From: Gaiellales bacterium | Lineage (GTDB): Bacteria; Actinomycetota; Thermoleophilia; Gaiellales; JAICJC01 | Direction: 5' to 3' | Length of the DNA stretch: 64,000 nucleotides | Assembly: GCA_033856675.1 (NCBI GenBank) | Contig: JAWVEN010000032.1 | Span: 41,081 to 105,080 of the forward strand | Part shown: positions 15,210-34,021 of the stretch, in pieces | How positions within the stretch are numbered: the first letter of the stretch is position 1 | Layout: each line of letters begins with the position of its first letter | The notes under the pieces: model-generated | Told to the model about the DNA's origin: nothing | What the model saw: only the letters and a program-made list of their open reading frames with translations | Database searches by the model: none | Made by a program: the position numbers and the translations under genes

Positions 15210-15255
15210 ACTCTGACGGTAGCAGCCGTTGTCTTCAGGATTGGTAAAGACGCGG

Positions 15256-18685: not shown

Positions 18686-19519
18686 CTACGGCGTTGTCGA
18701 ACGGCTTCGAGAAGCGCGTTTCAGCGACACTTCGGGTTGCCGCCCGTCCGCGTCCACCGCGGCGTACCCAAGCGCGCTCGAGATCCGGACGGTGTGGTGC
18801 AGCAACTTCTGGCCGAGATCGTGCTCCCGTCCCTCGAGGCGCTGGGTGGGTGCCGACACGCTCACGGTTGCCGCAACCTGGTGAGGGCCGCTCATCACCG
18901 GGCCGGCGACGCACCGCACCCCGGCCTCGTTTTCCTCCGCCTCGACGGCATAGCCACGGCGACGCACCCGGCGAAGCTCGCTTTCGAGCCGGGACAGATC
19001 GGTGATCGTGGTCTCGGTGAACCGCTCCGGGGCAGTGCCGACCAGGTCTCGCCAATCCGGGCGGTGCGCAAGCAGCACCTTGCCGGATGCCGTGGCGTGC
19101 AGCGGCAGCGCACGGCCGACCTCGCGATGCACCTGAACGCCGCGGGCCCCCGCGACCTGATCGACGTAGACGGCCACGCGGCCCTCGAGAACGAGCAGGT
19201 TGGCGGTCTCGCCGATCTCCTTCGTCACCGCCTCGAGGTGGGGCCGGGCGAGGGCGCGCAGATACGCGCTGCGGCGCCGGGCGTCGTCGGCGAACCGTGA
19301 CATGCGGTAAGCCAGTACGTAGCCCTCGCCGTCGACCGAGACGACGTACCCCTCCGCGCACAGGATCTGGAGCGTCTTGCGAATCAGCTTCAGCTCCTCA
19401 CCCGTGGACGCCGCGATCTCGGTGGCATGGCAACCGGGGAACTCCCTCAGCGCTTCGAGGATCAGGAAGGCGCGACGCACCACGGCGGTCGGCAGCGTTG
19501 CCGACGGCGAGGTCCTCAT
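18686..19519 (-). CDS. IclR family transcriptional regulator
   Basis: Winged HTH (AFLILEALREFPG..ATEIAASTGEELKLIRKTLQIL) plus an IclR effector domain. ATGA overlap with the upstream IclR gene. Confidence 0.9.
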   Translation of the reverse strand: MRTSPSATLPTAVVRRAFLILEALREFPGCHATEIAASTGEELKLIRKTLQILCAEGYVVSVDGEGYVLAYRMSRFADDARRRSAYLRALARPHLEAVTKEIGETANLLVLEGRVAVYVDQVAGARGVQVHREVGRALPLHATASGKVLLAHRPDWRDLVGTAPERFTETTITDLSRLESELRRVRRRGYAVEAEENEAGVRCVAGPVMSGPHQVAATVSVSAPTQRLEGREHDLGQKLLHHTVRISSALGYAAVDADGRQPEVSLKRASRSRSTTP

Positions 19520-20451
19520 GACTCGTCTCCGCCCGGTGCCTCGAAGGCGCGGTCAAAATCGCTCTTCAGCGTCCGTGCGCCAGGGTCATCGCTCGGCGAC
19601 AGAACAGAGTGCCCGAGCTGGCGGGAGAGCTCCACTGCGTGCCGGCGAAGCAGGCGGGTGAGGCCCGCCTGCATCTCCAGCAGCCGGGTCGTCGGGGCGC
19701 AGACGCTGATCGCCGCAACGGGCGCAAGAGTGGTGCTGAACACGGGTGCGGCGATGCAGGTGACACCGATCTCGTTCTCCTCCCGCTCCAGCGAGACACC
19801 GCTCTCGCGGATGGCGGCGAACTCCGCCTCGAGCTCCGCCGCGGTGGTCTTGGTGTGCAACGTCAGCCGGTCATAGGGCTCCTCCCGGCCGAGCGCCGCC
19901 CGCCATTCCTTGGCGTACGCGAGGAACGCCTTCCCGGAGGCCACCGAGTGTGCCGAGAAGCCCCGGCCGAGCTCCATGTTCATCCGCACACGGCGGGTGC
20001 CCTCGGCCTGTTCGATGCAGACCGCCCGGCCGCGCTCCAACACCACCAGGTTGACGGTCTCGCCGCAGGCATCGCGGATTGCGTTCAGATGAGGGCGCGC
20101 AACCGCGCGGAGCTCACCCGTTCGCTTCCCGGCGCCCTGCGCGAGCGCAAGGACGGCGTAGCCGAGGCGGTAGCGCCCCGATCGGCGGTCCTGCGTGACG
20201 AACTCCCGGGCGCACAGCGTCCCCAGCAGCCGGTGGACGGTGCTTGGATGCAGGCCGACCTCGTCGGCGAGCTCGCCCAGGCGCGAGTCGCCCAGGCGGC
20301 CGAGGGCCTCGAGCAGATCGAGGGCGCGCAGCAGCGACTGGACGCTGGACGCGTTTCGCTCCGATGCGGTGTTGCCGACCACTTGAACGGCATCCCCTCG
20401 GCGATGGGCGGGCTTGACGCTAATGGGCGCCGTCGCCGTCCGTTGAGACAA
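19516..20451 (-). CDS. IclR family transcriptional regulator (second, tandem copy)
   Basis: VQSLLRALDLLEALGRLGDSRLGELADEVGLHPSTVHRLL plus an effector domain. TTG 20451 overlaps the RidA 3' end; GTG 20382 is a plausible shorter start. Confidence 0.85.
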   Translation of the reverse strand: MSQRTATAPISVKPAHRRGDAVQVVGNTASERNASSVQSLLRALDLLEALGRLGDSRLGELADEVGLHPSTVHRLLGTLCAREFVTQDRRSGRYRLGYAVLALAQGAGKRTGELRAVARPHLNAIRDACGETVNLVVLERGRAVCIEQAEGTRRVRMNMELGRGFSAHSVASGKAFLAYAKEWRAALGREEPYDRLTLHTKTTAAELEAEFAAIRESGVSLEREENEIGVTCIAAPVFSTTLAPVAAISVCAPTTRLLEMQAGLTRLLRRHAVELSRQLGHSVLSPSDDPGARTLKSDFDRAFEAPGGDES

Positions 20452-20869
20452 CCGGTCGGTCGAGCACGGCGATCACCTCCGCCTCGATCAACAGGTTCGG
20501 ATAGATCAACCCGGCGACGCGCACCGCGGTTGCGGCCGGGCCAGGGTGCCTGAGGAACTCCATCCGCACCCGGGTCATCTTCTCCCAGTACGGCGTCAGC
20601 TCCTCATCGGTGCCGTTGAAGACGTAGTAGGTGTTCAGCTTGACGACGTTGTCCCAGTCGGCGCCGGCCTCGTTGAGCACCGTCGTGATGTTCTGGAACA
20701 CGTTGCGCGTCTGCACCTCGATGTCGCCGACCCCGATGGCCCGACCGGTGTCGTCGGCCGAGATCTGGCCTCCGACGAACAGCAGGTTCTCGACCACCCA
20801 CCCCTGGGAGAGCGGTACCGGGATGCTCCAGTCCCAGTGGTTCTTCGGCATGATCCGTGTCTTGTTCAC
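20420..20869 (-). CDS. RidA/YjgF family (enamine/imine deaminase-like) protein
   Basis: ..LLFVGGQISADDTG..IGVGDIEVQTRNVFQNITTVLNEAGADWDNVVKLNTYY......R......PAATAVRV..L.....LIEAEVIAV is the typical RidA fold signature. Confidence 0.9.
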   Translation of the reverse strand: MNKTRIMPKNHWDWSIPVPLSQGWVVENLLFVGGQISADDTGRAIGVGDIEVQTRNVFQNITTVLNEAGADWDNVVKLNTYYVFNGTDEELTPYWEKMTRVRMEFLRHPGPAATAVRVAGLIYPNLLIEAEVIAVLDRPVVSTDGDGAH

Positions 20870-20897
20870 GACACTCCCTCGTGGTGGTTGCCTGGAT

Positions 20898-22592
20898 TCA
20901 CTTCAGCGTCAGATTTGCCGGGCCGCCCTCGGCCACGGTGCCCGCGTACCGGCCGCCGCTCAGCGGCTGGGCGATCACGACGCTCGAGCGAAGCACCGTG
21001 ATCGCGGTGCTGGTCGCGACCATCACGGCGTGTGAGACGACATCGACGGGGTCGACGATACCGGCGTCCACGCCGTCCACCTCGCGGCCGGTGACCGTGT
21101 CGAACGCGAGCCACTCGCGACCCGCGCGCAGGCGGCCGACGACCTCGGGAACGTCCCAGCCGCCATTTCGCGCCAGTACTCGCGCCGGCTCTTCGCACGC
21201 CCGGCGCATGACCTCGAACCCGGCCGCCTCGCCGCCGCCGTGGCCATTCACCTTCGGCGCCTCGAGCGATGCCCCGGCGCGAAGGAGGGCGGCGCCGCCG
21301 CCGGGAACGACGCCCGAAGCCACTGCCCGCTTCACTGCCGCGAGCGCATCGAGACCGCGGCGGAACCGCTCGCGGCGCTCCACGTCGGTCGGCGCGCCGA
21401 TCCGCACCGAGGCGCACCCCGCGCCGGCCAGCCGAGAGCGCCTAGCCTCGAGCAGATCGCGGTCGTGGAGCGAATCCGCATCTCGCGCGTCGGATGCCAG
21501 CGCGGCAACCCGCAAGCGGAGCATCTGCGGGTCCGCGCCGCCGTCGTGAACCGTCGTCGTCGCGCGGCCGACGACGACGCGCCCGGCTGAACCGAGCGCG
21601 CCGGCATGGGCCTTGCCGAACACCACCAGACCCGCCTGGTCCACAACCGTCGCACCGGTGAACACGGCGAGGTCCTCGAGCACCTCCGAGCGGGTCACGC
21701 CGTGACCGGGCGCGACCACCGGGACGCACGTCGCACGCCTGTTCAGGCCGTTGACGGTGATCATCGCGAGGACATCCGCTCCGAAGCCGGTCGCAACGGC
21801 CAGCAGCGGCCGCCCGGTCGCCTGGCAGACCTCGAGCACACGGGAGAACGCGCGCATGTCGGAGACCTCGACGGAGCTGACGAAGACGAGTGCGTCTTGC
21901 AACACGGCCTCGGCGGCGCCGCGGTCGGGGATCAGGTTGGGGTCGAGATAGCCGCCCTTGATCGAGAACGACTCGTCGACGTCGACGGTGACCCCGGCCT
22001 CGTGGCCGCCCTCCTCGAGCAGCACGTTGTCACTCCCCACCCGCTCGACCGCCTCGGCGACCGCCCGGCCGATCTCAACGTCGCCGGCCGCCTGCCGGCC
22101 GACCACCTCGAGCTGCGCCACGGATTCGGCCCGTACCGAGCGCGCCGCCAGGCCGGCACACACCTGCTCGGCGGCGGCCTGCATCCCCCGCGTCACCGAC
22201 ACCGGCTCGTGACCGGCCATCACAACCCGCAGGCCGCCGCGCACCATCGCATCCGACAGCACGATCGCGGTGGTGCTTCCGTCGCCGGTGCCGCGTTTCG
22301 CCATCTTCGCTGCATCGCGGGCGAGGAACACCCCCTGGTTTCGGTACGTGTTCGACGTCAGGATCTCGCGCGCGATGGCATAGCCGTCGTTCCCCAGCAC
22401 CGGCGCGCCGGCCTTGCTGTCCATGGCCGAAACCGAGATCTCCGGCGTCCCGAACCTGCTGTCCATCATGACGACGCGGCCATGCGGGCCGAGCGTGCCC
22501 GAGACGACGCGCGCGACGAGGTTGATGCCGTCGGCGAGGTCACCCCTGGCACGTCCGTCATATCTGATTCCGCGTGCCGGCCGCTGGGGCAT
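20898..22592 (-). CDS. GroEL-like (Cpn60 family) chaperonin homologue, monooxygenase-associated type
   Basis: LGPHGRVVMMD.., KRGTGDGSTTAIVL (compare GDGTTT), ..GVVPGGGAALL.. GGAGGA RBS. ATG lies 2 nt after the upstream stop. Confidence 0.85.
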   Translation of the reverse strand: MPQRPARGIRYDGRARGDLADGINLVARVVSGTLGPHGRVVMMDSRFGTPEISVSAMDSKAGAPVLGNDGYAIAREILTSNTYRNQGVFLARDAAKMAKRGTGDGSTTAIVLSDAMVRGGLRVVMAGHEPVSVTRGMQAAAEQVCAGLAARSVRAESVAQLEVVGRQAAGDVEIGRAVAEAVERVGSDNVLLEEGGHEAGVTVDVDESFSIKGGYLDPNLIPDRGAAEAVLQDALVFVSSVEVSDMRAFSRVLEVCQATGRPLLAVATGFGADVLAMITVNGLNRRATCVPVVAPGHGVTRSEVLEDLAVFTGATVVDQAGLVVFGKAHAGALGSAGRVVVGRATTTVHDGGADPQMLRLRVAALASDARDADSLHDRDLLEARRSRLAGAGCASVRIGAPTDVERRERFRRGLDALAAVKRAVASGVVPGGGAALLRAGASLEAPKVNGHGGGEAAGFEVMRRACEEPARVLARNGGWDVPEVVGRLRAGREWLAFDTVTGREVDGVDAGIVDPVDVVSHAVMVATSTAITVLRSSVVIAQPLSGGRYAGTVAEGGPANLTLK

Positions 22593-22594
22593 GC

Positions 22595-23875
22595 CTATCC
22601 TCCGTTCATCCGGTTGCCGCTGGGCGCGCAGGCCCCATGGAGCGCGTGGTGCTCGAGATCCGAGCGGAACTTCTGCACCGCCGAGTACACGGGTAGGCGG
22701 GGCATCGCGATCAAGCTGCAGATGCCGCCCTGCCCGTTTGCGAAATCGACGACCTCGGGCAGCTTGTCGATCAGCACCGGCGGCGCTCCGCCTTTGATCT
22801 GGCCGACGAGCTTCGCCAGCATGTTGGTCTCCATCCGGCACGGCGGGCACTGGCCGCACTGCTCGCGGGCGAAGAACTCGCAGATCTCGAGCAGGCGCTC
22901 GAGCATGCACTCGTCGTCGCCCATCACCGTGAAGACCGCGCACCCGAGCGCCGAGCCGAGGCTACGGATCGACTCGTGGTCGAGTGGGACGTCGAGCTCT
23001 GCGGCCGTCAGGAATCCCGAGGACGGCCCTCCGGGAAGCACGGCGCGGATCGGCCGCCCGGAGCGAAGCGGTCCCCCGCACGACTCCAGCATCTCGCGCA
23101 CGTTCGTGCCGAGCTCCACCTCGTAGACGCCCGGGCGTTCGAGCTCGTCGCCCAAGGTGCAGAGCACCGTGCCGCTGCTCGACCCGGTACCCAGCTCGCG
23201 GTACCAGTCGGGCCCTTCGCGGAAGATCACTGCAAGCGTCGCCGCCGTCTCGACGTTCAGCACCGCGGTCGGCCGGCGCAGCAGTCCCTCCGTGACGGGG
23301 TACGGCGGGCGCTCGGCGGGCAGCGCGCTCCCACCGCCCAGGAACGCAAGCGCAGCGGTGTCCTCGCCGGAGATGTACGACGCAGGCGCGACGGCCAGGC
23401 GCAGCACGATCTCGCCGTCGGAGCGCTCGCCATCCCCCTCCGCAGCCCATGGGTCGGTGCGGATTCCGCCCGCGGCCGCCGCCGCCTCGACCCGGGCTCC
23501 CGAGGACGGGTAGAGCTCGCTGATGTAGAACACCGCGTCGCGCGCCCCGACCAGCCTCGCAGCGATCAGCGCGCCCTCGACCACCAAGCCTGGGCATTGC
23601 TCCAGCAGCGCCTGGTCCTTGCCGCTGCCTGGCTCGTCCTCCGCCCCGTTCACCACAACGTATTTCTGCTCACCGTCAGCCTCTGAGGCGAGTCGCAGCT
23701 TCGTCCCGGTGGGGAAACCTGCGCCGCCGCGGCCTCGCAACCCGGAGCGTTCGGCCCACTCCAGGCCCTCCTCGACCGGCAGCGCGCCCGCCGCCTCCCA
23801 GCCGGCGTACGACAGCGTGTCGTCACGTCCGAACACCGGGCCGGCGTACATCCGCGGCACTGCCGAAAGGCTCAT
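22595..23875 (-). CDS. NuoF/HoxF-like NAD(P)H-binding FMN and [4Fe-4S] flavoprotein
   Basis: GLRGRGGAGFPTGTK (FMN/NADH site), SLBB-like middle region, and CGQCPPCR...C cluster motif. ATGA overlap with the upstream M20 gene. Confidence 0.85.
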   Translation of the reverse strand: MSLSAVPRMYAGPVFGRDDTLSYAGWEAAGALPVEEGLEWAERSGLRGRGGAGFPTGTKLRLASEADGEQKYVVVNGAEDEPGSGKDQALLEQCPGLVVEGALIAARLVGARDAVFYISELYPSSGARVEAAAAAGGIRTDPWAAEGDGERSDGEIVLRLAVAPASYISGEDTAALAFLGGGSALPAERPPYPVTEGLLRRPTAVLNVETAATLAVIFREGPDWYRELGTGSSSGTVLCTLGDELERPGVYEVELGTNVREMLESCGGPLRSGRPIRAVLPGGPSSGFLTAAELDVPLDHESIRSLGSALGCAVFTVMGDDECMLERLLEICEFFAREQCGQCPPCRMETNMLAKLVGQIKGGAPPVLIDKLPEVVDFANGQGGICSLIAMPRLPVYSAVQKFRSDLEHHALHGACAPSGNRMNGG

Positions 23876-25032
23876 CGCGCCTTCTCGTCGAGCAGGATCT
23901 GCGTGTAGCAGCGGACGGCACGGTAGATGTCCTGCACCTCGACGTGCTCGTCCTCGGTGTGCGCCAGGCGTTCGTCGCCAGGGCCGAGGAACACGGTCAC
24001 CACCCCCAGCCGTCCGAGCACCGACGCATCGGTGACGTACGGCATCGCGCGGGTGACCGGGGGGCGGCCAAGGGCGCGCTCGACCGATCCGGCCACACGA
24101 CCGACGAAGCTGTCGCCGCGGGCGACGGCGACGCCGGGCGCGTCGCGGGTCACCGCCACGGCGCCCCCGCGGCAGCGCCGCTCGATCTGCGCGACGAGTT
24201 CCGCGTGATGCATGCCCGAGACCGTGCGGATGTCGAGGTCGACGGAGCACTCGGCCGGAACGACGTTTCGCGCCACGCCCCCACGCAGGATGTTCAGCGA
24301 GACCGTTGGGCGGCCCAGCACGGGATCGTCCGCGCCTTGCGTGAGGCTTCGCTCGAGATCAGCGAACGGCATCAGCCACTCGAGCGTCTCGAGGATCGCG
24401 TTTTGGCCCTGCTCGGGCTGAGAGCTGTGGGCCGGCACGCCGGTGTTGGTGACCGACAGCCACAGCGCGCCCTTGTGGCCGATGCCGAGGTCGAGCCTGG
24501 TCGGCTCGCCGATCACCATCTCGGTCAGGCCATCGAGGGCGCCCATGTCAAGCAGCGCACTTGCACCGGCGGAGTCGACCTCCTCGGCGGTTGTCACGAT
24601 CAGCGCCACGCCGTCGAGCACGGCCGCGTCCGCCTCGGCGACGTCGCGCAAGGCGACCGCCATCGCCGCGAGCGCGCCTTTCATGTCACACGACCCGCGG
24701 CCGTGCAGGCGCCCGTGCTCAACGGCGCCGGAGAGCGGCGGGCGCGTCCACGCCGCAGCATCGGCAGGGACGGTGTCGACATGGCCGCAGAGGGCAAGCC
24801 GGGCCGGCCCCGTGCCCCATCGGGCAACCAGTCCCGCCGCGACACCATCGTTGCGCAGCAGCTCGAAGGACGCACCGGCGGCTCCGGCGAACCGGCCCAG
24901 CAACTCCAGCCCTTCGACGTTGCCCGCGTCGACCTGGCACGTGTCGATGCGGATCAGCGCCTGCGCCAGCGCAAGAGCATCCATCCCGCTCTCGTGCATC
25001 GGCGGAGGCAGTTCGTCGAGCAGCGAGCTCAT
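23872..25032 (-). CDS. M20 family metallohydrolase (ArgE/DapE-type deacylase)
   Basis: LCGHVDTVP, GRGSCDMKG, ..TTAEEVDS.., HTEDEHV are typical M20 metal- and catalytic-residue contexts. Confidence 0.9.
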   Translation of the reverse strand: MSSLLDELPPPMHESGMDALALAQALIRIDTCQVDAGNVEGLELLGRFAGAAGASFELLRNDGVAAGLVARWGTGPARLALCGHVDTVPADAAAWTRPPLSGAVEHGRLHGRGSCDMKGALAAMAVALRDVAEADAAVLDGVALIVTTAEEVDSAGASALLDMGALDGLTEMVIGEPTRLDLGIGHKGALWLSVTNTGVPAHSSQPEQGQNAILETLEWLMPFADLERSLTQGADDPVLGRPTVSLNILRGGVARNVVPAECSVDLDIRTVSGMHHAELVAQIERRCRGGAVAVTRDAPGVAVARGDSFVGRVAGSVERALGRPPVTRAMPYVTDASVLGRLGVVTVFLGPGDERLAHTEDEHVEVQDIYRAVRCYTQILLDEKAR

Positions 25033-25045
25033 GGCCGGAACGTCG

Positions 25046-25798
25046 TCAGTCCTCGAGCCAGGCCACGGCGCGAATCGGAGAACCGGTGCCGTCCTTGAAG
25101 TTGATCGGCAGGCCCATGTACATGAACCGCTTGCCGAGCAGCAGATCGAGGTTCGTCAGCACCTCGGTGTTCACGATCCCGTACTCGCCGCACACCATGT
25201 GCCCGGAGAACTCGAGGTCGTCGCTGTGGTCGATGGCGAGCTGGTCGATGCCGATATTGACGACGCCGCGCTCGGCCAGCCAGATGGCGCCCTCGCGGCT
25301 GAGCCCCGTGTAGGTGTCGATGAACTCCTTCGTGCCGAACGTGCGGTCGGCATGGCCTGTGTAGAGCAGCACGATGTCGCCCGGGCGGATCTCCTGGCCG
25401 CTCTTTGCGAGCGCATCCTCGAGCACCTCGGGCGTCAGCCAGTCGGGGTGCCGAACGTGCGTCACGTCGAGGCAGATCGCCGACCCGTAATAGAACGCGA
25501 GCGGCGTCTCGTCGATCGACGGGCCGCCGGGGACGTACTCGATCACTGCGTCCGTGTGCGTCCCGGTGTGCTCGCTCATCAGCCAGTTGTGAGCCTCGAA
25601 GCCGACGCTCGTGCCCCAGCGCTTCTTGAACCCCTCGTGATCCTGGTTGACGAACATGAACGGCAGCTGGTGGCCAGGCCAAAGCGGCATGCCCTGCTCG
25701 ATGTTGCGGGACAGGTCGATCAGCTTCAGGCCCCGTTCGAGCAGCTGGTCGCCGCCCTTCGGCGTCGCCCGCCGTCCGGTATCGGTTGCGATGCTCAT
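25046..25798 (-). CDS. cyclase-family (kynurenine formamidase/isatin hydrolase-like) metal hydrolase, variant motif
   Basis: SEHTGTHTDAVIEY matches the HxGTHxD core of the putative-cyclase family but lacks the following PxH. Start at the internal ATG of ORF 25046..25855. Confidence 0.85.
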   Translation of the reverse strand: MSIATDTGRRATPKGGDQLLERGLKLIDLSRNIEQGMPLWPGHQLPFMFVNQDHEGFKKRWGTSVGFEAHNWLMSEHTGTHTDAVIEYVPGGPSIDETPLAFYYGSAICLDVTHVRHPDWLTPEVLEDALAKSGQEIRPGDIVLLYTGHADRTFGTKEFIDTYTGLSREGAIWLAERGVVNIGIDQLAIDHSDDLEFSGHMVCGEYGIVNTEVLTNLDLLLGKRFMYMGLPINFKDGTGSPIRAVAWLED

Positions 25799-25835
25799 GT
25801 CCGCTCCTTCGTCTCGAGATTTGGGCACCGGCGGG

Positions 25836-26186
25836 TCAGAACGACCCCCAGCCACCGGCGTCGAGGATGTTCAGGATGAATCCGGCCGTCGTCTTGTCGG
25901 CAGTTTCCAGGCGCTCCAGGCGCGGCCCGCGGCCGGTCAGGTGCTCCACAAGCTCCGGGACATCCTCCTCCCGGACACCGCAGTACCAGGCACGGTCGGG
26001 GTACACGATCATGTTGGGGCCGATGTCGCAGCCGCCGAAGCACGTGTACTCCTCGAGCTCGACGTCGCCGCCGTCCGGATCGTCGTCGAGCAACCGCTGG
26101 ATCTCGTCGGCAAGCTCCAGCGATCCGCGTGACCGGCAGTCGATGTTGTCGCAGATGAAGAGCTTCTTCGGCTGATCGTCGTCCAT
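25836..26186 (-). CDS. thioredoxin-like [2Fe-2S] ferredoxin (NuoE-type fold)
   Basis: Cys pattern FICDNIDCRSRG ... YTCFGGCDIGPN (C-x4-C ... C-x3-C) followed by PNMIVYPD..WY. Confidence 0.8.
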   Translation of the reverse strand: MDDDQPKKLFICDNIDCRSRGSLELADEIQRLLDDDPDGGDVELEEYTCFGGCDIGPNMIVYPDRAWYCGVREEDVPELVEHLTGRGPRLERLETADKTTAGFILNILDAGGWGSF

Positions 26187-26212
26187 CGTGTGTCACATCC
26201 GCAGACGATGGG

Positions 26213-26443
26213 TCAACGGTCCAGCACGGCATGGACGAGGGCATGTGTCTCGACGCCGTACTCCGACAGCGACGTTCCGCTGTCGAGCGCGGTGCCGTTG
26301 AAGCTGAGCGATACCGAGCCGGGCGCGCCGGGCTCCTTGAACGCCTCGAGCACGGCTTCCCGTGTCTCGTCCACCGAGCTGGACGGCGACACACCGGGCA
26401 GGGCCCGCGGGGGCAGCTCGTCCGGCACGAGTGCGTAGATCAT
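26213..26443 (-). CDS. small 76-aa protein in the gamma/TmoB position of the hydroxylase operon
   Basis: Lies 12 nt after the alpha stop, with good codon bias. Size and position fit TmoB/gamma-type small subunits. Sequence similarity cannot be confirmed by eye. Confidence 0.45.
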   Translation of the reverse strand: MIYALVPDELPPRALPGVSPSSSVDETREAVLEAFKEPGAPGSVSLSFNGTALDSGTSLSEYGVETHALVHAVLDR

Positions 26444-26455
26444 CGAGACACCCCC

Positions 26456-27958
26456 TCAGTGGCCATGGCCGTTGTGGCCGTTTGCGCCGCCCGGGGCGAA
26501 CAGGTCGCCTCCCAGCGCCGGGTCGTTGATACCGATCTGCTTCAGGAACTCGTCCGGGTCGTCGGGCATGACGCCGTCGAGCACGAGGTCGACGATCGTC
26601 TTGGCGCCCTTGTACTTCTCCGGCTCGTTCATGAAGATCTCGCGGCACGGCCGCGAGCAGAACCAGTACGTGCGCCCTTCGAGCTCGACCGGCCCCTCGA
26701 TCATCGGGCCGTGCTCGTCCTGGAACATGCACGCGACCTGGCACAGGTTGCAGACCGGCACGAGCCCGGCGTTCGCCACGTCACGGCCGCCCCGCACGTC
26801 GTCCCAGAACCGGCCGACCATCTGTGGCCAGTCCGGGTACTTCTCGGTCAGCCACTCGCGATCCTCGTCGTCGGGCTGGAACATCTTGAACCAGAGCATG
26901 TCCTTGCGCTGGTACAGGTACTTCCAGACCACGTGCGAGAGCTGGTCCATGTCGTCCAGCATGTATTCGAGGTACGCCGGCTCCTTGATGCCATACGGAC
27001 CGAGGTCGGCGACGAGGCCGCCGATGAAATCGTCCACGAAGTACTTCTGGAATGCCTCCTTGTACGACATCACCTTGTTCTTCGCGAAGTAGTCGAAGAA
27101 GATCGAGCCGCCGAGGGCGTCCACGCGGTACAGGCGCCACGTCCACTTGTCGAGCCAGCCCTGGATGATGGGCAGGTTGCGCGAGTCCTCCTCGAGCAGC
27201 GTGCGCATCATCGACTGGCCGATCGCCATGTGACGGGTCTCGTCGGATTGCGTCGTCAGCTGCAGCTGCGACCACGCGTACTCGTAGTTCGCCGCCCCGA
27301 CGGCCGGCAGCGCGACGAAGTTCAGGTTGGTGAAGCCGATCTCGAGCACGACATTTGCGGCGATGATCGCCTCGAACGGGTTCGCCGTCAGGATGTCCTC
27401 GAAGCAGTGGCGGATGCCCTGGTACAGCCAGTGGTTCTGAAACAGCGTGGCCCAGCCGCTGAAGCCGGGCAGCTTGCGGTTTGCATACCGCAGGTAATGG
27501 GCGTAGTTCTGCGCGTGGCGCAGCTCGTCGATCGACTGGTACAGCGACGCCGCGCGAAGAGCGGGCGCCGGCGAGTACCGCGCGATGGCCATGTGGTCCT
27601 TGCACGTCTCGTACTCGGTCTGCCCCTGACCGCAGGCGAACAGCTTCATGCCTTCGAGCCAGGTGGCCTCGACGCGCGACAGATAGTCGTACCGGGCCGC
27701 GTGGTCGAAGACCATGTGGAGGCTCTCCTCCTTCTTCTCCTGAACCTTGACGTAGTCCTTGTAGAAGAGGCGGAACGGGTCGTCGAACTTGTCCCAGTCG
27801 CTGAAGTGCACGCCCTCGGCATGCTCGGGCGGATACATCTCCTCCTTGGGGACATAGCTCGGCTCCCAGCCGAGGTCCCGGGTGAAGTCCTTGTACTGGT
27901 CCTTGATGTTCTGCTGCGTCGCTTCCTGAACGCCGACGCGACTGGGCCTGGTGCTCAT
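26456..27958 (-). CDS. soluble diiron monooxygenase hydroxylase large (alpha) subunit, phenol/toluene hydroxylase type
   Basis: 500 aa. Ligand motifs are E115..(30)..E145-LR-H148 (SIDELRHAQ) and E206..(34)..E240-TR-H243 (QSDETRHMA). C-terminal Cys-rich domain: PVCNLCQVAC..YWFCSRPCREIF. Confidence 0.9.
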   Translation of the reverse strand: MSTRPSRVGVQEATQQNIKDQYKDFTRDLGWEPSYVPKEEMYPPEHAEGVHFSDWDKFDDPFRLFYKDYVKVQEKKEESLHMVFDHAARYDYLSRVEATWLEGMKLFACGQGQTEYETCKDHMAIARYSPAPALRAASLYQSIDELRHAQNYAHYLRYANRKLPGFSGWATLFQNHWLYQGIRHCFEDILTANPFEAIIAANVVLEIGFTNLNFVALPAVGAANYEYAWSQLQLTTQSDETRHMAIGQSMMRTLLEEDSRNLPIIQGWLDKWTWRLYRVDALGGSIFFDYFAKNKVMSYKEAFQKYFVDDFIGGLVADLGPYGIKEPAYLEYMLDDMDQLSHVVWKYLYQRKDMLWFKMFQPDDEDREWLTEKYPDWPQMVGRFWDDVRGGRDVANAGLVPVCNLCQVACMFQDEHGPMIEGPVELEGRTYWFCSRPCREIFMNEPEKYKGAKTIVDLVLDGVMPDDPDEFLKQIGINDPALGGDLFAPGGANGHNGHGH

Positions 27959-27965
27959 AGATCCG

Positions 27966-28295
27966 TCACCCTTCCGTACTCGCTTGCGCGTGTTGGTCTT
28001 CGATCCAGCTCAGCGTCACACCGGCCTCGTCCATGCGGACGATGTAGCCGGCATAGTTGGCGAGAATCACCTGCAGCTCGCGAGTGTCCCAGCGGCGGCC
28101 GAGTGCGTCGCTGACGTCGGCGCACTCGAACTGGAGCCTTCCCGGCGCGGAGATGTTGAGCTGTCCGGGCAGCGGCTCGACGATCGCATTCGGGGTGCTC
28201 TTGACAACCGCTTCTGCGATCGCGTCTGCCTCCTCGCCTCCCATCAGCTCGAGTCGCGCCTGTGCAACGAACCTCGGGCTCGCCGTATCTGTCAT
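27966..28295 (-). CDS. MmoB/DmpM-family monooxygenase effector (coupling) protein
   Basis: 109 aa. ..AIAEAVVKSTPNAIVEPLPGQLNISAPGRL......V.DALGRRWDTRELQV.. parallels DmpM. ATGA overlap with the beta gene. Confidence 0.8.
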   Translation of the reverse strand: MTDTASPRFVAQARLELMGGEEADAIAEAVVKSTPNAIVEPLPGQLNISAPGRLQFECADVSDALGRRWDTRELQVILANYAGYIVRMDEAGVTLSWIEDQHAQASTEG

Positions 28296-29338
28296 GACGC
28301 CTCGCTTCCCACCGGCGCGGGACGGTCCTGGAGGAGCGTGCCGGAGACTCCCGCTGAGTCCAGCACGTCGGCTGCGAGGTTGCGCGCCTCCGCCAGGGAG
28401 GAGTCGAAGTTCTGCTCCTTGCCGACGACAGAGAACACCGGCCCGAGCGCCTCGACGGAGCGAAGCGCGAGCGGGGCCCAACTGTCGATCCACTCCGCCG
28501 TGGTGGTGGCGTTCTCCTCGGACTCCTCACTCAGCATCGCCGCCAGAGCCGCTCCCCACGCCCAGTGCCGCTCCTCGTCGCCGTACACCGAGTAGGCGAA
28601 GTGCGGCAGGACGATGTCCGAGTGCGCGTTGCCGAGATCGGTCAGCGTGCGGTACATCACGCGCTGCAGCATCGGTTCGAGCACGAGGTTGGTGGCAACG
28701 ACCACCTCGCCCCAGTCCTTCAGCACACACACGCGCTCGAGGTACTCGCGCATCGGCTGGAACATCGGGTCCTGGAGCCACTGGGTGCGGTAGCCGCCGA
28801 ACCCGCCGTGCTCGGCCTCGAGGTCGTGCGTCCACTCCGCGATCCGCTGCGTGTGGCGCAGCTCGTCGAACACCTGCAACACGGACGGGTTGGTGATGAG
28901 GCTCGAGATCGCGAACCGTCCGACGTACTGGTGGGCCATGCTGATGCCCCACTCGGCGAACCGCATCGGCGCGAAGAACATGCGCAGCGTCTCGACCCAC
29001 TCAGGGTCGAGGTAGCGCACGGCGCGCTCTTTCCGCGCCGCGGTGATCACGATCTCGAGCGCGGCCTCACGCTCGGATTGCAGCTCGTGGTAGGAGCGGT
29101 ACGTCAGCCGGTTGGGATCGCGGAACGACTCCCAGCGAGCCGACTTCCACCGCGTCTTGGTCGGGTCCCAGTACCCCAGCTTGTAGTGCTCGGGATAGTG
29201 GTAGTACGCGCCCTCGTTGGGGAGGTCCGGATACTTGCCGCGGAACGTCTCGCCCCACTGCACATACGCGGTGACTTCCTCGTACACGTCCGGCCTTCGA
29301 CGCTCTCCCTCGAGGTGCTCAAATGTCTTTCGCGCCAT
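28292..29338 (-). CDS. diiron hydroxylase beta-position subunit (348 aa) that retains a complete E/EXXH/E/EXXH ligand set
   Basis: Same family fold signature. E129..(30)..E159-LR-H162 (VFDELRHTQ) and E221..(34)..E255-ER-H258 (YGDEERHWA). GAAGGA RBS before the ATG at 29338. Confidence 0.85.
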   Translation of the reverse strand: MARKTFEHLEGERRRPDVYEEVTAYVQWGETFRGKYPDLPNEGAYYHYPEHYKLGYWDPTKTRWKSARWESFRDPNRLTYRSYHELQSEREAALEIVITAARKERAVRYLDPEWVETLRMFFAPMRFAEWGISMAHQYVGRFAISSLITNPSVLQVFDELRHTQRIAEWTHDLEAEHGGFGGYRTQWLQDPMFQPMREYLERVCVLKDWGEVVVATNLVLEPMLQRVMYRTLTDLGNAHSDIVLPHFAYSVYGDEERHWAWGAALAAMLSEESEENATTTAEWIDSWAPLALRSVEALGPVFSVVGKEQNFDSSLAEARNLAADVLDSAGVSGTLLQDRPAPVGSEAS

Positions 29339-29605
29339 GGATCCTTCGACCTCGACTTTCTGACGGCACGCGTCGGCGGGATGCGTTTTCGAGTCTCGTT
29401 TGGCCGCAATGGGCACGCAAGGGTTGCTTTCCGCGATGCGGAACGGCGCGCGCATTTTTCAGATCAGCGAACGTTTCGGCCTGCCTGTCGTGAGCTTCCA
29501 TTGCCCGATCGCCTACGTGGCTGATTCCACGGCATGCGTGGACGCTGGGCGAAGGACCGTGTCCTGAACCAGCACCAGCGCCGCGTAGGTCTGGGAATCA
29601 ACCAT
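29339..29605 (-). promoter_or_regulatory. 267-nt untranslated spacer ahead of the hydroxylase genes (possible internal promoter/leader)
   Basis: Largest non-coding gap in the 17-gene co-directional array, with lower local GC in places. No box confidently identified. Confidence 0.3.
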
Positions 29606-31111
29606 CTACGTGTGACTGACCGGAGAGATGCCTGCGTACTCACGCGCGAAGCGGGCCATCTCCGACCGGTCGGTGTGCTGGTAGACGAGGTGGGCAACGT
29701 ACGCCGGCGGCGTTGCGTTCACGTTCTCGAACAAGGCAACGCGGTTCGCGTGGGCGCCGCTCAGCAGATCCCATACGAAGCTGAAGAACTGGTTCTTCTC
29801 GCGCGCGGTGACCCCGGTACCGGGGAGGTACTCCTCCAGCATCGGGCCGAACTCGGGGTGGTCCCAGACCTTCTCGGGCCAGCGGGAGATCAGCGCCTGT
29901 CCGCACAGGTCCTTCATCAGGTAGGTGATCCGCGGGTACTCCTTGATCGAGTACAGCCGGCCCGCCGTGACGAGCGGCGGATTGGGCACCTGGACGCCGC
30001 ACCACTCCACGGCCTCCTCGATCGTGGCCACGGTGTAGGCGCGCAGGGTCTGGGCGTACAGCGTGATCTCGGCGACCGCGTTCTGGACGCCGGGGATGAC
30101 GTCCGTGCCAAGGATCTCCGTGATCGCCTGCGCCACGCCGGCGAAGATCTCGGCCCGGAAGCCGAGCCGCATCATGATCGACCACAGCATGTACGCGCCG
30201 CTCTCGTAGTACACGTCGAGCAGTGCGCGGTTGCGCACGCTGAAGACGAACTCCTTGGGGATGAAGACGTCGTCGAACAGATAGATCTGATCTGTCTCCT
30301 CCCCACGGGCCTCGACCGGGTGGTCGCCGGGGTTGGGGTTCGGCGGCACCGTCGGCTCGCGCAGCACGAGTGACAGTCCCGCGCTGTTCACCGGGACGCC
30401 CGCCCAGATCGCCGCGTCGTCGGTCACGCCCTCGCCGAGCACGGTCGACAGCGTCAGCATGTGGCAGAGGGCGCCGATGCTGCCGGCAACCTTTGCCCCC
30501 CGCACGACGATGCCGTCGGGCCGGTCCTCGACGATCCGCAGCTGTCCCGGCTTCTCGTTCTTCGGGATCCTGCGATCGGACTGCGGGTCGGCGATCAGGT
30601 CGGTGCTGAGCAGGTTGAGGTCGCCGGACATGGTGACGTACTTGCGCATGTTCTCGGCGAACTCCGGGTTCTCCGCCTCGACCCGGTCGATCACGGCCAG
30701 GAACCCGAGCGACATCATCGGCCCGTAGTCGGGCGGCCGGCCGTACATGCCGAGGGTCTCCAGCGTGATGCGGCGGGTCGAGTCCCGCTTCGCCGACAGG
30801 TGCTCCTTGGTCGTCGGCACCTGCCAGCCCACCGCGCGCCGGGCCCCCGCTTCGTCGACGTACGTCAGCGTGTCGCGGGTGGCGGGGTCGAACTGCAGGT
30901 CGAGCACGCGCGCGATCGAGTTCACCGCCGTCGTCGCCGGATGGGTGGTGACGTCCTCGATCTCCTCTCCGGACGCGCTGACCACCCGCCGGCCGTCGCG
31001 CAGCGTCTGCCTGTACTGGTCACCCGTCAGGAGGTGCGGATCGGCGCTCCCGTCCAGCGCCTCCACGACCTTGTCGATTCCGAGCCGCTTGGCGTCGGTC
31101 GCGATGCTCAT
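29606..31111 (-). CDS. HpaB-family (4-hydroxyphenylacetate 3-hydroxylase-like) flavin-dependent oxygenase component
   Basis: About 501 aa with the N- and C-terminal HpaB architecture (..RVLDLQFDP.., ..RIVEDRPDGIVVRGAKVAGS.., ..YPRITYLMKDLCGQALI..). GAAGGGA RBS. No flavin reductase gene nearby. Confidence 0.8.
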   Translation of the reverse strand: MSIATDAKRLGIDKVVEALDGSADPHLLTGDQYRQTLRDGRRVVSASGEEIEDVTTHPATTAVNSIARVLDLQFDPATRDTLTYVDEAGARRAVGWQVPTTKEHLSAKRDSTRRITLETLGMYGRPPDYGPMMSLGFLAVIDRVEAENPEFAENMRKYVTMSGDLNLLSTDLIADPQSDRRIPKNEKPGQLRIVEDRPDGIVVRGAKVAGSIGALCHMLTLSTVLGEGVTDDAAIWAGVPVNSAGLSLVLREPTVPPNPNPGDHPVEARGEETDQIYLFDDVFIPKEFVFSVRNRALLDVYYESGAYMLWSIMMRLGFRAEIFAGVAQAITEILGTDVIPGVQNAVAEITLYAQTLRAYTVATIEEAVEWCGVQVPNPPLVTAGRLYSIKEYPRITYLMKDLCGQALISRWPEKVWDHPEFGPMLEEYLPGTGVTAREKNQFFSFVWDLLSGAHANRVALFENVNATPPAYVAHLVYQHTDRSEMARFAREYAGISPVSHT

Positions 31112-31130
31112 GTGTGATCCCTTCGTCCGG

Positions 31131-32627
31131 TCAAATCGCTGCGTCTCCCTCGACCATGGGCCGCATGTCCGCGGCCTCGACGATCGACTCCTCACGTCCG
31201 GGGTGATTGCGCTCCGGGAACAGCATCAGGCTCGCGCCGTAGATCACGGCCGAGATCACGGCCGCGCTGGTGAAGCTGAGGTCGATGCCCTTGTAGGCGT
31301 CGGCCCACGGGCCGACCCAGAGCGTCGTGTTGATGCAGAGGATGCCGACGGTGACCGCCGGGATGAACGCGGCTGCGGCCCGCAGGTTCACGCCGCTGGT
31401 GAACCAGTACGCCCCGCCCGTCTGGCCGAGGTTGAAGAGCTGCAGGTCATGTACGTGGTAGCGCTTCCGGGCGTAGTAGAACCCGATCAGGCAGATCACC
31501 ATCCATGGCGTGCAGATCACGATCAGGAAGAGCAGGAACGCGCTGACGGTGTCGAACGCACTCCAGACCAGGGCGCCCAGGTAGACGAGCGCCACTGCCA
31601 CGGCACTGATCAAGAGCGTGGCGGGGATGCGCTGCAGCCGCGGAATCAGCGACGACATGTCGAGACCGGTGCCGTAGAGGCAGATCGCGCCCTGGGCGAG
31701 GCTCCCGAAGAAGCCGATCGCCATCAGCCCGACGACGTACCAGCTCGGCGATGTGGCGACGAGCCCGTCCATGAAGAGCAGCGTCGGGTCCATCATCGTG
31801 GCCATGTACGCGGCCCAGACGAGCGCCACCCAGCAGCCGACGAACATCCCGAGGCCCGCCGCCGTCGCGACCGACCGGTCGCTCCACTTCTTCGGAGAGA
31901 TGTATCTGGCGTAGTCGTTGGCAAACGGCGTGTAGCTGATCGGCAGCGATGCGGCCGTCACCATCGCGAGCACCCAGGTCGGCCAGAAGTCGCCGAGCAG
32001 GTAGGCGCCGCCGTGATAGCCGGCGTCGAAGTCGCCGAGCTTGGCGAAGAAGCCGACGACCAGCAGAGCCCCGACCACCGGGATCACGATCTTCTGCGCG
32101 GCCACCACGTTGGCGTGGCCATAGATCGCGAGCGTGATCACGATCGCACTGATGATCCCGTACATCAGTCCGCGCGCGACGTTGCCGTCGGGCGTGTCGA
32201 GCAGGCGGTGGGCGCCGGCGACGACCGCGTCGCCGCCGGTCCAGATCGTCAGCGCCGCAAAGCCCATGGCGATGAACAGCGCCTGCAGCGAGCCGACGAC
32301 ACGGCCCAACAGGCCGAAGTGCGCACCGGACGTGACAGCGCTGTTCGTCCCGCTGTACGGGCCGAGCAGCGAGAACGGCGCGAACGGAAGACAGCCGACG
32401 ACGAGGCCGACGGTGATCGCGGCCACCGAGCTCCACCAGCCGAGGCCGAAGGCGACCGGCAGCCACCCGAGCACGATGATGCCGAAGCACATCTGCGCGC
32501 CGACCCACACGTAGAACAGGTTCGTCGGGGTCGAGTGCCGGTCTTCGAACGGGATGTAATCGATGCCGTGGGTCTCGATCTTTCCGACCTCGTCAACGGC
32601 GGTTGGGTGCTGCCCAGATGTGCTCAT
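31131..32627 (-). CDS. NCS1-family nucleobase/hydantoin-type permease (purine-cytosine permease-like)
   Basis: 12-TM profile. N-terminus ..IETHGIDYIPFEDRHSTPTNLFYVWVGAQM.. is typical of CodB/NCS1 transporters. Confidence 0.9.
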   Translation of the reverse strand: MSTSGQHPTAVDEVGKIETHGIDYIPFEDRHSTPTNLFYVWVGAQMCFGIIVLGWLPVAFGLGWWSSVAAITVGLVVGCLPFAPFSLLGPYSGTNSAVTSGAHFGLLGRVVGSLQALFIAMGFAALTIWTGGDAVVAGAHRLLDTPDGNVARGLMYGIISAIVITLAIYGHANVVAAQKIVIPVVGALLVVGFFAKLGDFDAGYHGGAYLLGDFWPTWVLAMVTAASLPISYTPFANDYARYISPKKWSDRSVATAAGLGMFVGCWVALVWAAYMATMMDPTLLFMDGLVATSPSWYVVGLMAIGFFGSLAQGAICLYGTGLDMSSLIPRLQRIPATLLISAVAVALVYLGALVWSAFDTVSAFLLFLIVICTPWMVICLIGFYYARKRYHVHDLQLFNLGQTGGAYWFTSGVNLRAAAAFIPAVTVGILCINTTLWVGPWADAYKGIDLSFTSAAVISAVIYGASLMLFPERNHPGREESIVEAADMRPMVEGDAAI

Positions 32628-32661
32628 CGGATCGACCCTTTCCTCACTATTCCGGTGCTGC

Positions 32662-33411
32662 TCAGGACAGATCTCCTCGCAACGCGACCGCGCGCACCGG
32701 CGAACCGGTGCCCGCGCGGATGTTCAGCGGCAGCCCGAGGAAGAAGAACCGTGTTCCGGCAACCTTGTCGAGGTTCGTCAAACTCTCGGTATTCACGATG
32801 CCGTACTGCTTGCAAATTTGGTGCGCCGAAAACTCGAGATCGGTGCTCTTGTCAATCGACAGGTTGTCGGTGCCGATGTTGACGACGCCGGCCTTCGCCA
32901 GGAACTCGGCGCCCTCGAGATTCAGGCCGGGATACTCCTCGGCGTACTTCAAGGTCGGGAACACGGTGTCGCCGTATCCCGTGTGCATCAGCACGATGTC
33001 GCCGCGCTCGATCGCGAGGCCGCTGCTCTCGAGCGACTCGCGCAGCATCTCCTCGGTGATCCACCGGTCGGCCGTCAGGGGCGCCAGATCGAGGCAGATC
33101 GCGGGGCCGTACCAGTAGGACAGCGGAGACTCGTCCAGGTGCGGCCCCGACTCGTCGTACTCGAACACGGCGTCGGTGTGCGTCCCGCAGTGCTCGCTGA
33201 TCAGCAGGTTGTGGGCTTCGAACCCGCAGCTGGTCTTCCAGATCTCCTTGAACTCGTCGTGCGTCTGGTTGCGCATGATGAAGGTCTTCTGATGACCGAA
33301 CCACTGGGGCATGCCCTCGTAGATGGGGCGGGTGAGATCGACGACCTCGACCCCTCGGTCAAGCAGGTCGCTTCCCAGCAGTGGAAGGGAGCTCGGCGTG
33401 GTTGCTGACAC
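32662..33411 (-). CDS. cyclase-family metal hydrolase, paralogue of 25046..25798
   Basis: SEHCGTHTDAVFEY, the same variant motif. Alignable over the full length with the first copy (roughly half the residues identical by eye). Confidence 0.85.
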   Translation of the reverse strand: MSATTPSSLPLLGSDLLDRGVEVVDLTRPIYEGMPQWFGHQKTFIMRNQTHDEFKEIWKTSCGFEAHNLLISEHCGTHTDAVFEYDESGPHLDESPLSYWYGPAICLDLAPLTADRWITEEMLRESLESSGLAIERGDIVLMHTGYGDTVFPTLKYAEEYPGLNLEGAEFLAKAGVVNIGTDNLSIDKSTDLEFSAHQICKQYGIVNTESLTNLDKVAGTRFFFLGLPLNIRAGTGSPVRAVALRGDLS

Positions 33412-33439
33412 TGTTCGTTCCTCCTCGTCGACCGTTTGC

Positions 33440-33931: not shown

Positions 33932-34021
33932 TCAGGCTCCTCCTCGCGACTCGCGTTACAACACCGCAGAATCGGCAAGATTTATCATGTGCTGTAAGGT
34001 TCGTCAAGGGGCGTTTTTCGC

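Follow-up and report, generated by a model that had tools for sequence, protein, structure and literature searches.

How does a soluble diiron monooxygenase (SDIMO) receive its electrons when no reductase of the usual kind is encoded beside it? This question is raised by an operon on the minus strand (29338 down to 20420) of contig JAWVEN010000032.1 from a Gaiellales bacterium (a soil actinobacterium of the class Thermoleophilia), of which a stretch of 64,000 nucleotides (nt), herein called the window, was analysed. The reductases of characterised SDIMOs are of the FNR type, and the ferredoxin of toluene monooxygenases is of the Rieske type. Characterised SDIMO groups are fed by a dedicated NADH reductase, and a ferredoxin component is listed for the toluene monooxygenase group only (PMC11825192). 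The initial annotation of the window saw in the operon an undescribed SDIMO architecture with redox partners of the complex I/diaphorase type, and comparative genomics supports that view. We propose, at a probability of about 0.65, that the operon specifies a four-component SDIMO fed by a NuoF-like flavoprotein and a thioredoxin-like [2Fe-2S] ferredoxin. On this comparative evidence the lineage would combine an electron-transfer chain non-homologous to the known ones with a small subunit of ubiquitin fold.

Hydroxylase genes and redox proteins of the operon

Ten genes, rather than the eleven first counted, lie between 29338 and 20420, and every gene product that had been named there was backed by profile searches. 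The hydroxylase genes code for a beta subunit of 348 amino acids (aa) (28292..29338; Pfam Phenol_Hydrox, E 3.6e-60) and an alpha subunit of 500 aa (26456..27958; Phenol_Hydrox, E 1.6e-56, plus YHS). Between them lies the gene for an effector (coupling) protein of 109 aa (27966..28295; Pfam MmoB_DmpM, E 3.6e-17), which is hidden in a listing of the longest open reading frames (ORFs). The alpha gene is followed by that of a 76-aa ubiquitin-like (beta-grasp) protein, the probable gamma subunit (26213..26443; weak Pfam ubiquitin match), then by that of the ferredoxin (116 aa; 25836..26186) and, beyond two hydrolase genes, by that of the NuoF-like FMN/[4Fe-4S] flavoprotein (426 aa; 22595..23875). 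With starts chosen from ribosome-binding sites and neighbouring genes, the junctions first described (two ATGA overlaps and gaps of 2-37 nt) were reproduced: the overlaps join beta to effector at 28295 and a deacylase gene (M20) to the NuoF-like gene at 23875, and the remaining gaps measure 7, 12, 26, 37, 13, 2 and 28 nt. A GAAGGA ribosome-binding site precedes ATG 29338, the start of beta, and the sequence upstream of this codon is conserved in three related loci (L001, L002 and L009).

The ferredoxin matches Pfam 2Fe-2S_thioredx (E 6e-7) and NCBIfam fdxn_Clost (E 5.6e-12) and carries the cysteine pattern Cx4C...Cx3C. Its PDB matches are the N-terminal thioredoxin-like domain of HydB from electron-bifurcating hydrogenases (E 4.6e-13) and Aquifex Fd4 (1f37; E 4.9e-10). 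An identity as NuoE was ruled out: NuoE chains matched weakly (E 2e-3), and only positions 68-144 of the 145 in the profile were covered. Judged by its sequence, the protein is a free thioredoxin-like ferredoxin without the N-terminal helical domain of NuoE. The first assignment of the redox proteins to the complex I/hydrogenase-diaphorase type consequently needs refinement; it holds for the flavoprotein, whereas the ferredoxin stands nearer to the HydB N-terminus and to free ferredoxins than to NuoE.

The flavoprotein has the domain set Complex1_51K, SLBB and NADH_4Fe-4S, and its PDB matches are HydB (7t2r_B, E 7.6e-71, residues 149-531) and mycobacterial NuoF (8e9g_F, E 1.5e-70). Aligned to HydB, it retains the FMN motif GLRGRGGAGFPTG as well as CGQCPPC (CxxCxxC) and the downstream Cys. 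It scores below the cut-off of all NuoF equivalog models, and is therefore taken to be a paralogue rather than a complex I subunit. The ferredoxin aligns with HydB residues 7-106 and the flavoprotein with residues 149-531, so that the two look like a HydB/HoxF-type subunit split into two genes. In their fused form, the two are known to act as a single unit of electron transfer. These HydB matches of both proteins provide fusion-type evidence that they may exchange electrons.

As first noted, neither an FNR-type reductase nor a Rieske ferredoxin was found in the 64 kb, as far as tested. A tblastn search of the 64 kb with two SDIMO reductases (from L004 and L007) gave a best E value of 0.18, and Pfam scans of most window ORFs revealed no Fer2/FAD_binding_6/NAD_binding_1 protein and no Flavin_Reduct. 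Likewise, no FNR-type reductase lies within 10 kb on either side in the three closest genomes (L001-3). The only Rieske motif in the window, at about 12.1 kb and 8 kb from the operon, was considered as the missing ferredoxin and rejected, being part of the alpha subunit of a Rieske non-haem oxygenase (11194-12420, minus strand; Rieske plus Ring_hydroxyl_A). No beta, ferredoxin or reductase gene adjoins that oxygenase gene, and an apparent Lrp/AsnC-like regulator, read from the translation (12468-13052), is divergent from it.

Co-conservation of the redox genes with the hydroxylase

Fifty-seven loci (L001 to L057) were gathered by genome, metagenome and exact-protein look-ups, and their partner genes were mapped with tblastn and Pfam labels. 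The ferredoxin gene stands beside SDIMO structural genes in every locus with an alpha identity of at least 40% and enough flanking sequence (32 loci plus L055-57). It always immediately adjoins a structural gene, in at least five gene orders, and the loci of this group that show no ferredoxin all end close to the hydroxylase genes. Canonical loci, with an alpha identity of at most 34% (L004, L046, L048 and L051), carry an FNR-type reductase and no thioredoxin-like ferredoxin.

Type A, beta-effector-alpha-small-ferredoxin-...-NuoF-GroEL, is the order of the window and of L001-3, L005, L009-13 and L017-22. Type B runs alpha-beta-effector-ferredoxin-NuoF-cyclase-RidA-...-NCS1 (L026-29, L034 and L055). 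In type C a NuoF-like gene is followed at a distance by effector-ferredoxin-(pyridine-nucleotide-disulfide oxidoreductase)-beta-alpha-small (L006 and L035-37), and in type D the order is beta-alpha-small ... effector-ferredoxin, with or without NuoF (L024, L032, L039 and L057). Type E comprises an FNR-type reductase, two GroEL genes and beta-effector-alpha-small-ferredoxin-epoxide hydrolase (L007/8, L015/16 and L040).

The NuoF-like gene accompanies the SDIMO cluster in the window and in 18 related loci, rearranged ones included. Upstream of the operon, the window also encodes an HpaB-family flavin-dependent monooxygenase, which might be thought to use the NuoF-like protein as its flavin reductase. 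That assignment was rejected on synteny: the NuoF-like gene is kept where HpaB is absent (L005, L006, L022 and L026-29), and L055 has its own Flavin_Reduct gene for HpaB besides the NuoF-like gene. For these reasons the NuoF-like protein is tied to the SDIMO rather than to HpaB. Synteny of both the ferredoxin and the NuoF-like gene with the hydroxylase extends to relatives with an alpha identity as low as 40%, and it persists in several rearranged orders.

The two genes differ in the closeness of this association. In type C, about 3 kb separate the NuoF-like gene from the effector-ferredoxin pair, and in the subclade with a pyridine-nucleotide-disulfide oxidoreductase the NuoF-like gene is still found in both sufficiently long loci (L006 and L037). 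In type E, the ferredoxin co-occurs with an FNR-type reductase. Given these arrangements, the ferredoxin has a closer link with the hydroxylase than with any single reductase, and on synteny it is the ferredoxin, not the NuoF-like protein, that appears as the universal partner of the lineage. A second NuoF-like copy was observed in L029 (10816-11988), about 5 kb downstream of the first.

Some of these loci carry further genes of interest. The type E set is joined by an SDR gene, with Rieske dioxygenase and meta-cleavage genes downstream (L007:3096-13229; also L008, L015, L016 and L040). In L006 (5531-9003), L057 (12601-15690), L033, L037 and L041, the SDIMO adjoins a MetE-like (Meth_synt_2) and/or a Pyr_redox_2/Pyr_redox_dim gene; these neighbours presumably resemble the epoxyalkane:coenzyme M transferase and 2-ketopropyl-coenzyme M oxidoreductase of alkene pathways. 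Since type E comes with an epoxide hydrolase, and types C and D with MetE-like and disulfide-reductase genes, the SDIMO lineage probably covers several substrates.

Position of the hydroxylase among SDIMOs

The hallmarks of an SDIMO are present, namely the two E...(D/E)ExxH motifs for a carboxylate-bridged diiron centre, a paralogous beta subunit and an MmoB/DmpM effector. The diiron ligands of the alpha subunit (E115, E145, H148, E206, E240 and H243) are invariant in 18 clade members, as are the active-site residue T210 and C403/C406/C434/C438, which form the C-terminal Cys4 (YHS-like) site. The best solved relative of the alpha subunit is the phenol hydroxylase PhN (3u52; E 3e-82); toluene monooxygenases (E about 1e-53) come next, ahead of methane monooxygenase (E about 1e-22). 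Identity is 34.6% to PhN and 27.0% to TouA. An identity cut-off of about 35% has been suggested for the phenol hydroxylase group, in which deep, uncharacterised actinobacterial branches were also noted (PMC11825192); the value for PhN falls right at that cut-off.

The alpha subunit appears to nest in no characterised group. In a neighbour-joining tree with TouA as outgroup, PhN belongs to a canonical clade (100% bootstrap) outside which all ferredoxin-linked sequences fall, and the window-related sequences form the sister group of the canonical phenol hydroxylases with 64% support. The same sister grouping received 36% in an earlier neighbour-joining tree rooted on the distant SDIMOs L048 and L051.

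The genomes nearest to that of the window are Thermoleophilia assembled from metagenomes, with alpha identities of 94% (Thermoleophilia bacterium), 91% (Gaiellales bacterium) and 80% (Thermoleophilaceae bacterium). The ferredoxin-linked lineage also occurs in Acidimicrobiia, Sporichthyaceae and other uncultured bacteria. For all its diversity the lineage is not a large one: among 1.84 billion cluster representatives, a scan yielded only about seven with an identity of at least 41%, two of them partial.

A ubiquitin-like small protein

The order beta-effector-alpha-small had first been read as that of dmpLMNO. The order itself is kept, but the likeness is superficial, as the cluster has no DmpK or DmpO homologue and its small protein is ubiquitin-like. 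A DmpO- or DmpK-type small subunit was ruled out, since tblastn with DmpK and DmpO of L004 found nothing, and the 76-aa protein gave no Pfam TmoB match even at E <= 10. Its sequence profile matches ubiquitin (E about 2e-4). AlphaFold2, run on a shallow alignment, returned a confident ubiquitin-like beta-grasp model (pLDDT 90.7) with a TM-score of about 0.8 against ubiquitin, and ubiquitin dominates the structural matches. The protein has no C-terminal Gly-Gly. Homology searches with it, and with the ferredoxin, gave close relatives only, at identities of at least 63%.

In types A, C, D and E the gene for the small protein comes after alpha, and in type B it is absent as a separate gene. The beta subunit of type B is extended by 70-85 residues (for example, L055:10448-11707 and L056:6125-7429, with 419-434 aa vs the 348 aa of the window protein) and begins with MLVYVRIEGETPP..., a stretch that matches the N-termini of the small proteins (E 3e-4). 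This suggests that the extended beta subunit is a gamma-beta fusion, and it is because of this apparent fusion that we read the 76-aa protein as a hydroxylase subunit, probably gamma.

Chaperonin, catabolic genes and surroundings

A GroEL-like chaperonin paralogue of 564 aa is encoded behind the flavoprotein (20898..22592; Cpn60_TCP1, E 1.2e-42). Its score is above the cut-off of the GroEL subfamily model NF009487 (395 vs 352 bits) and below that of the GroEL equivalog (351 vs 582), and its gene is syntenic in L001-3, L009, L012, L018, L021 and L022.

The other genes of the operon code for enzymes of a catabolic kind. A cyclase-family metal-dependent amidohydrolase (25046..25798, 250 aa from ATG 25798; Pfam Cyclase, E 9.6e-36) and an M20 (ArgE/DapE-type) deacylase of 386 aa (23872..25032; Peptidase_M20 plus M20_dimer) stand between ferredoxin and flavoprotein, and a RidA-family imine/enamine deaminase of 149 aa (20420..20869; Ribonuc_L-PSP, E 2.2e-20; RutC-like, E 6.6e-10) closes the operon. 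The cluster extends upstream: beyond a gap of 267 nt before beta lie four co-directional genes (29606-33931), which are part of the same conserved gene set. They specify the oxygenase component of the HpaB-family monooxygenase (501 aa, 29606..31111; HpaB_N plus HpaB), an NCS1-family nucleobase/hydantoin-type permease (498 aa, 31131..32627; Transp_cyt_pur, E 4.4e-51), a second cyclase-family amidohydrolase (249 aa, 32662..33411; Cyclase, E 3.2e-31) and a second RidA-family protein (up to 163 aa, 33440..33931; Ribonuc_L-PSP, E 1.4e-20). Judged by codon-position G+C, minus-strand genes continue without a break from about 33931 to 15256.

The PDB relatives of the cyclase proteins are kynurenine formamidase and isatin hydrolase, and those of HpaB are 4-hydroxyphenylacetate, nitrophenol and chlorophenol monooxygenases. 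The best relatives of the M20 protein are generic ArgE/DapE deacylases; its best NCBIfam match was AcOrn-deacetyl (198 bits), and all its NCBIfam matches lie below the cut-offs. Both RidA proteins are RutC-like (E about 1e-10). Subclades A and B keep the cyclase and NCS1 permease genes together with the SDIMO, and the HpaB gene is syntenic in L001, L002, L009, L010, L012 and L055. In L055 (43% alpha identity), the permease, HpaB, two cyclases, two RidA proteins, M20 and a MerR-XRE-cupin regulator occur in another order, and part of the gene set recurs in L026-29 and L034. From these families, the most likely function of the module is uptake, double hydroxylation, amide/formamide hydrolysis and deamination of a polar N-containing (hetero)aromatic compound.

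Regulatory genes lie at both ends. A MerR + XRE (HTH_3) + cupin regulator (34022..34993, plus strand; Pfam, PuuR-like) is divergent from the upstream genes, and one of the same architecture adjoins the rearranged cluster of L055. Downstream of RidA are two tandem IclR-family regulators (18686..20382, minus strand; IclR_C/HTH_IclR), a pair that is kept after RidA in L001 (81% and 75% identity). The 267-nt intergenic region upstream of beta (29339-29605) shares conserved blocks, such as CGCATCGCGGAAAGCAACCCTTGC and GTCAGAAAGTCGAGGT, with L001, L002 and L009, and these blocks may be promoter/operator elements for IclR or MerR-type regulators. An inverted-repeat search of two intergenic regions, 29339-29605 among them, gave nothing above chance, and neither did promoter and terminator consensus scans.

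The window has a G+C content of 64-73% (2-kb windows). Across the alpha/beta genes and the upstream cyclase/RidA genes (26001-30000 and 32001-34000) it is 64-66%, vs 68-71% in the flanks, a difference that may stem from constraints on composition or from horizontal acquisition.

Next to the SDIMO module lies a utilisation cluster of the hydantoin/allantoin type (35001-44101, minus strand). It comprises a carbamoylase-type M20 amidase, an Asp/Glu/hydantoin racemase and an allantoinase/hydantoinase that passes the AllB model (it is ErtD-like below the cut-off); a peptide-type ABC transporter follows these genes. On the other side, two neighbouring low-complexity proteins rich in Gly/Asp/Ser/Thr (13998-14600 and 14808-15539, both minus strand) share the repeated Cys motif CDEAEHANDPECTG, with the variant KEREHKNDPECTG, and beside them the product of 13116-13958 has a C-terminus like a cupredoxin copper site (FCAVHPGMKG). 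An unrelated sugar-utilisation region (47944-55753) contains a GH4 glycosidase, a DeoC/LacD aldolase, two PfkB kinases, a SIS-domain protein and a sugar ABC transporter.

Discussion

In the mechanism that we propose, alpha, beta and the small ubiquitin-like gamma subunit would form the hydroxylase, which would work with the MmoB/DmpM effector and whose folding is probably aided by the dedicated GroEL paralogue. The usual FNR-type FAD/[2Fe-2S] reductase would play no part. Acting as an NAD(P)H:ferredoxin reductase, the NuoF-like flavoprotein would pass electrons from NAD(P)H through FMN to its [4Fe-4S] cluster, from which the free thioredoxin-like [2Fe-2S] ferredoxin would carry them to the diiron centre. 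The ferredoxin stays when the reductase gene is far away (type C) or of a different kind (type E), and for that reason we picture it as a lineage-wide shuttle docking on the hydroxylase, in a role like that of the Rieske ferredoxin of toluene monooxygenases. The reductase that charges it would be exchangeable, most loci having the NuoF-like type and one subclade the FNR type. In the window, this chain would serve a module with uptake by the NCS1 permease, oxygenation by the SDIMO and the HpaB-type enzyme, ring opening or deacylation by the cyclase and M20 proteins, and deamination by RidA.

Could the hydroxylase instead draw on a conventional reductase of the FNR type from another part of the genome, with the ferredoxin and NuoF-like protein providing reduced flavin to HpaB or taking part in general metabolism? 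Some oxygenase systems do have unlinked reductases, only part of the genome is visible, and HpaB-type oxygenases require a flavin reductase, for which the scanned window ORFs offer no Flavin_Reduct gene. We nonetheless consider this quite unlikely, because the ferredoxin and NuoF-like genes remain with the SDIMO in the HpaB-less loci (those named above and L057), L055 has both a Flavin_Reduct and a NuoF-like gene, and the ferredoxin gene is always next to an SDIMO structural gene. Moreover, canonical relatives retain the FNR reductase in the operon (PMC11825192 and the loci herein). Another possibility is that the ferredoxin is an accessory that loads the diiron centre with iron, reactivates it or protects it, and is itself kept reduced by the NuoF-like protein, with parallels in the XylT/DmpQ-type ferredoxins for catechol dioxygenases and the DmpK/MMOD-type assembly proteins. 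Reactivating ferredoxins are known in phenol/toluene operons, and a DmpQ-like gene is present in L004. The cluster has no DmpK homologue, so another assembly factor may be needed, and subclade E encodes a complete FNR-type reductase with its own Fer2 domain alongside the ferredoxin. Such a role is unlikely, however, since most loci have no other candidate reductase in reach, which would leave the catalytic electrons without a source, and since a NuoF-type [4Fe-4S] end normally passes electrons to a further iron-sulfur carrier. The coexistence of the two proteins in subclade E has a counterpart in the four-component toluene monooxygenases, where a reductase with its own [2Fe-2S] cluster still needs a separate ferredoxin (PMC11825192).

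The catabolic module raises a rival of its own, in which the neighbourhood is a mosaic without a common function: a simple phenol or hydrocarbon would be the substrate of the SDIMO, and amidohydrolases, RidA and permease would belong to an adjacent pathway for an N-compound. The M20 gene does come and go among loci, a hydantoin-utilisation cluster lies next door, and the pairing of this SDIMO type with epoxide hydrolase or MetE-like/coenzyme M-type genes in other subclades implies a broad substrate range. Against this, loci with 41-43% alpha identity again combine cyclase, RidA and NCS1 genes with the SDIMO in another gene order, L055 adds HpaB and a regulator of the same domain architecture, and the short gaps and ATGA overlaps of the operon indicate co-translation. 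A mosaic is very unlikely on this evidence.

Several observations count against the ferredoxin/NuoF-fed reading or parts of it. The glycine-rich motif at the NADH site of the NuoF-like protein is partly altered in the HydB alignment, APASYISGEDTAAL departing from GAGAYICGEETAL, which we take to be the usual NuoF consensus. Neither a NuoF-like nor an FNR-type gene was seen nearby in L019 and L021, which have good flanks, or in L056. The survey covered the 64-kb window and 10 kb on either side in relatives, and an FNR-type reductase could lie elsewhere in the genome. In subclade E the FNR-type reductase has its own [2Fe-2S] domain, and the extra ferredoxin might be non-catalytic. The evidence for the gamma-beta fusion consists of a 20-residue N-terminal match (E 3e-4) and the length of the extension. 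The linkage of M20 is unstable, the gene being absent from its slot in L001 and located elsewhere in L003 and L055, and the hydrolase families do not narrow the substrate class further. Finally, monophyly of the ferredoxin-linked lineage has a neighbour-joining bootstrap of only 36-64%, and strict monophyly is not established at these values.

Weighing these points, we see an evenly balanced case for a broader proposal, namely that the loci represent an unrecognised SDIMO group, sister or basal to the phenol hydroxylases, with an obligatory ferredoxin shuttle that is usually charged by the NuoF-like protein, a ubiquitin-fold gamma subunit and, in the window, a place at the start of a pathway for an N-heterocycle or an aromatic amine/amide. 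If the proposed chain is correct, it would be the first case of a complex-I-type NADH module driving an oxygenase, and the electron-delivery side of SDIMOs would prove to be modular. The phenol hydroxylase branch would gain a new and possibly ancestral state, and an SDIMO would be tied to nitrogen-compound catabolism in abundant uncultured soil Actinomycetota. It would also explain why metagenomic "orphan" SDIMOs may fail in heterologous hosts that lack the right partners and chaperonin. The compact set of seven genes is testable for biocatalysis.

Comparison with known systems

In the literature searched, no paper was found that links an SDIMO, phenol hydroxylase or multicomponent monooxygenase with NuoF, NuoE, a thioredoxin-like ferredoxin or a diaphorase, and no report of an oxygenase as the acceptor of a complex-I-type NADH module. 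A 2025 review of SDIMOs does not mention NuoF, NuoE or thioredoxin-like proteins (PMC11825192).

The nearest characterised relatives are the three-component phenol hydroxylases (group 2 in Yang et al. 2025, group 1 in the older numbering), represented by DmpKLMNOP of Pseudomonas CF600 and PhKLMNOP/PHH of Pseudomonas sp. OX1, the latter with the closest characterised alpha subunit, PhN. The window shares with them the order beta-effector-alpha-small, the C-terminal Cys4/YHS-type site of alpha and the MmoB/DmpM effector. Their operons run accessory-beta-coupling-alpha-gamma-reductase (PMC11825192). Unlike them, the window has no DmpK, DmpO-type gamma or DmpP detectable by tblastn with L004 queries, and the ferredoxin takes the sixth (reductase) position. 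It also has a GroEL paralogue in the operon, and its neighbours are amidohydrolase, RidA and permease genes rather than meta-cleavage genes.

A divergent GroEL paralogue in or beside an actinobacterial SDIMO operon is a feature that the window shares with MimG, MmoG and BmoG. These known SDIMO chaperonins go with propane/acetone, methane and butane monooxygenases, whereas that of the window goes with the phenol hydroxylase branch. GroEL-like genes belong to the mim and bmo clusters, and MimG and BmoG are needed for, or helpful to, functional expression (PMC11825192).

Among the NADH-input modules (NuoEF, HoxEF/HoxFU, HydBC and NfnB), the window flavoprotein has the NuoF domain set and the FMN/[4Fe-4S] motifs. 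Unlike NuoE and HydB, the pair in the window has neither the N-terminal helical domain of NuoE nor the C-terminal ferredoxin domains of HydB. No hydrogenase, formate dehydrogenase or Nuo partner genes lie nearby, and the acceptor that we propose is an oxygenase.

For the catabolic module, the closest parallel is provided by Rut-type N-heterocycle pathways, which use the same kinds of parts: an oxygenase, an amidohydrolase, RidA/RutC and a nucleobase-type permease. Unlike the Rut pathway, the window has an SDIMO and an HpaB-type enzyme instead of RutA, and cyclase-family and M20 hydrolases instead of RutB. The proteobacterial SDIMOs HpdABCDE and PmlABCDEF, which reportedly act on N-heterocycles, were considered as relatives, and no sequence link to them was established.

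In the logic of electron transfer, the four-component toluene/benzene monooxygenases (T4MO TmoABCDEF and ToMO TouABCDEF) come closest. Their gamma subunit, TmoB, is a small beta-grasp protein, the fold also predicted for the 76-aa protein. Their gene order is alpha-gamma-ferredoxin-effector-beta-reductase (PMC11825192), and their Rieske-type ferredoxin and FNR-type reductase are both non-homologous to the proteins of the window. The proposed scheme is nonetheless the same in both, with a reductase feeding a [2Fe-2S] ferredoxin, which in turn would feed an (alpha-beta-gamma)2 hydroxylase working with its effector.

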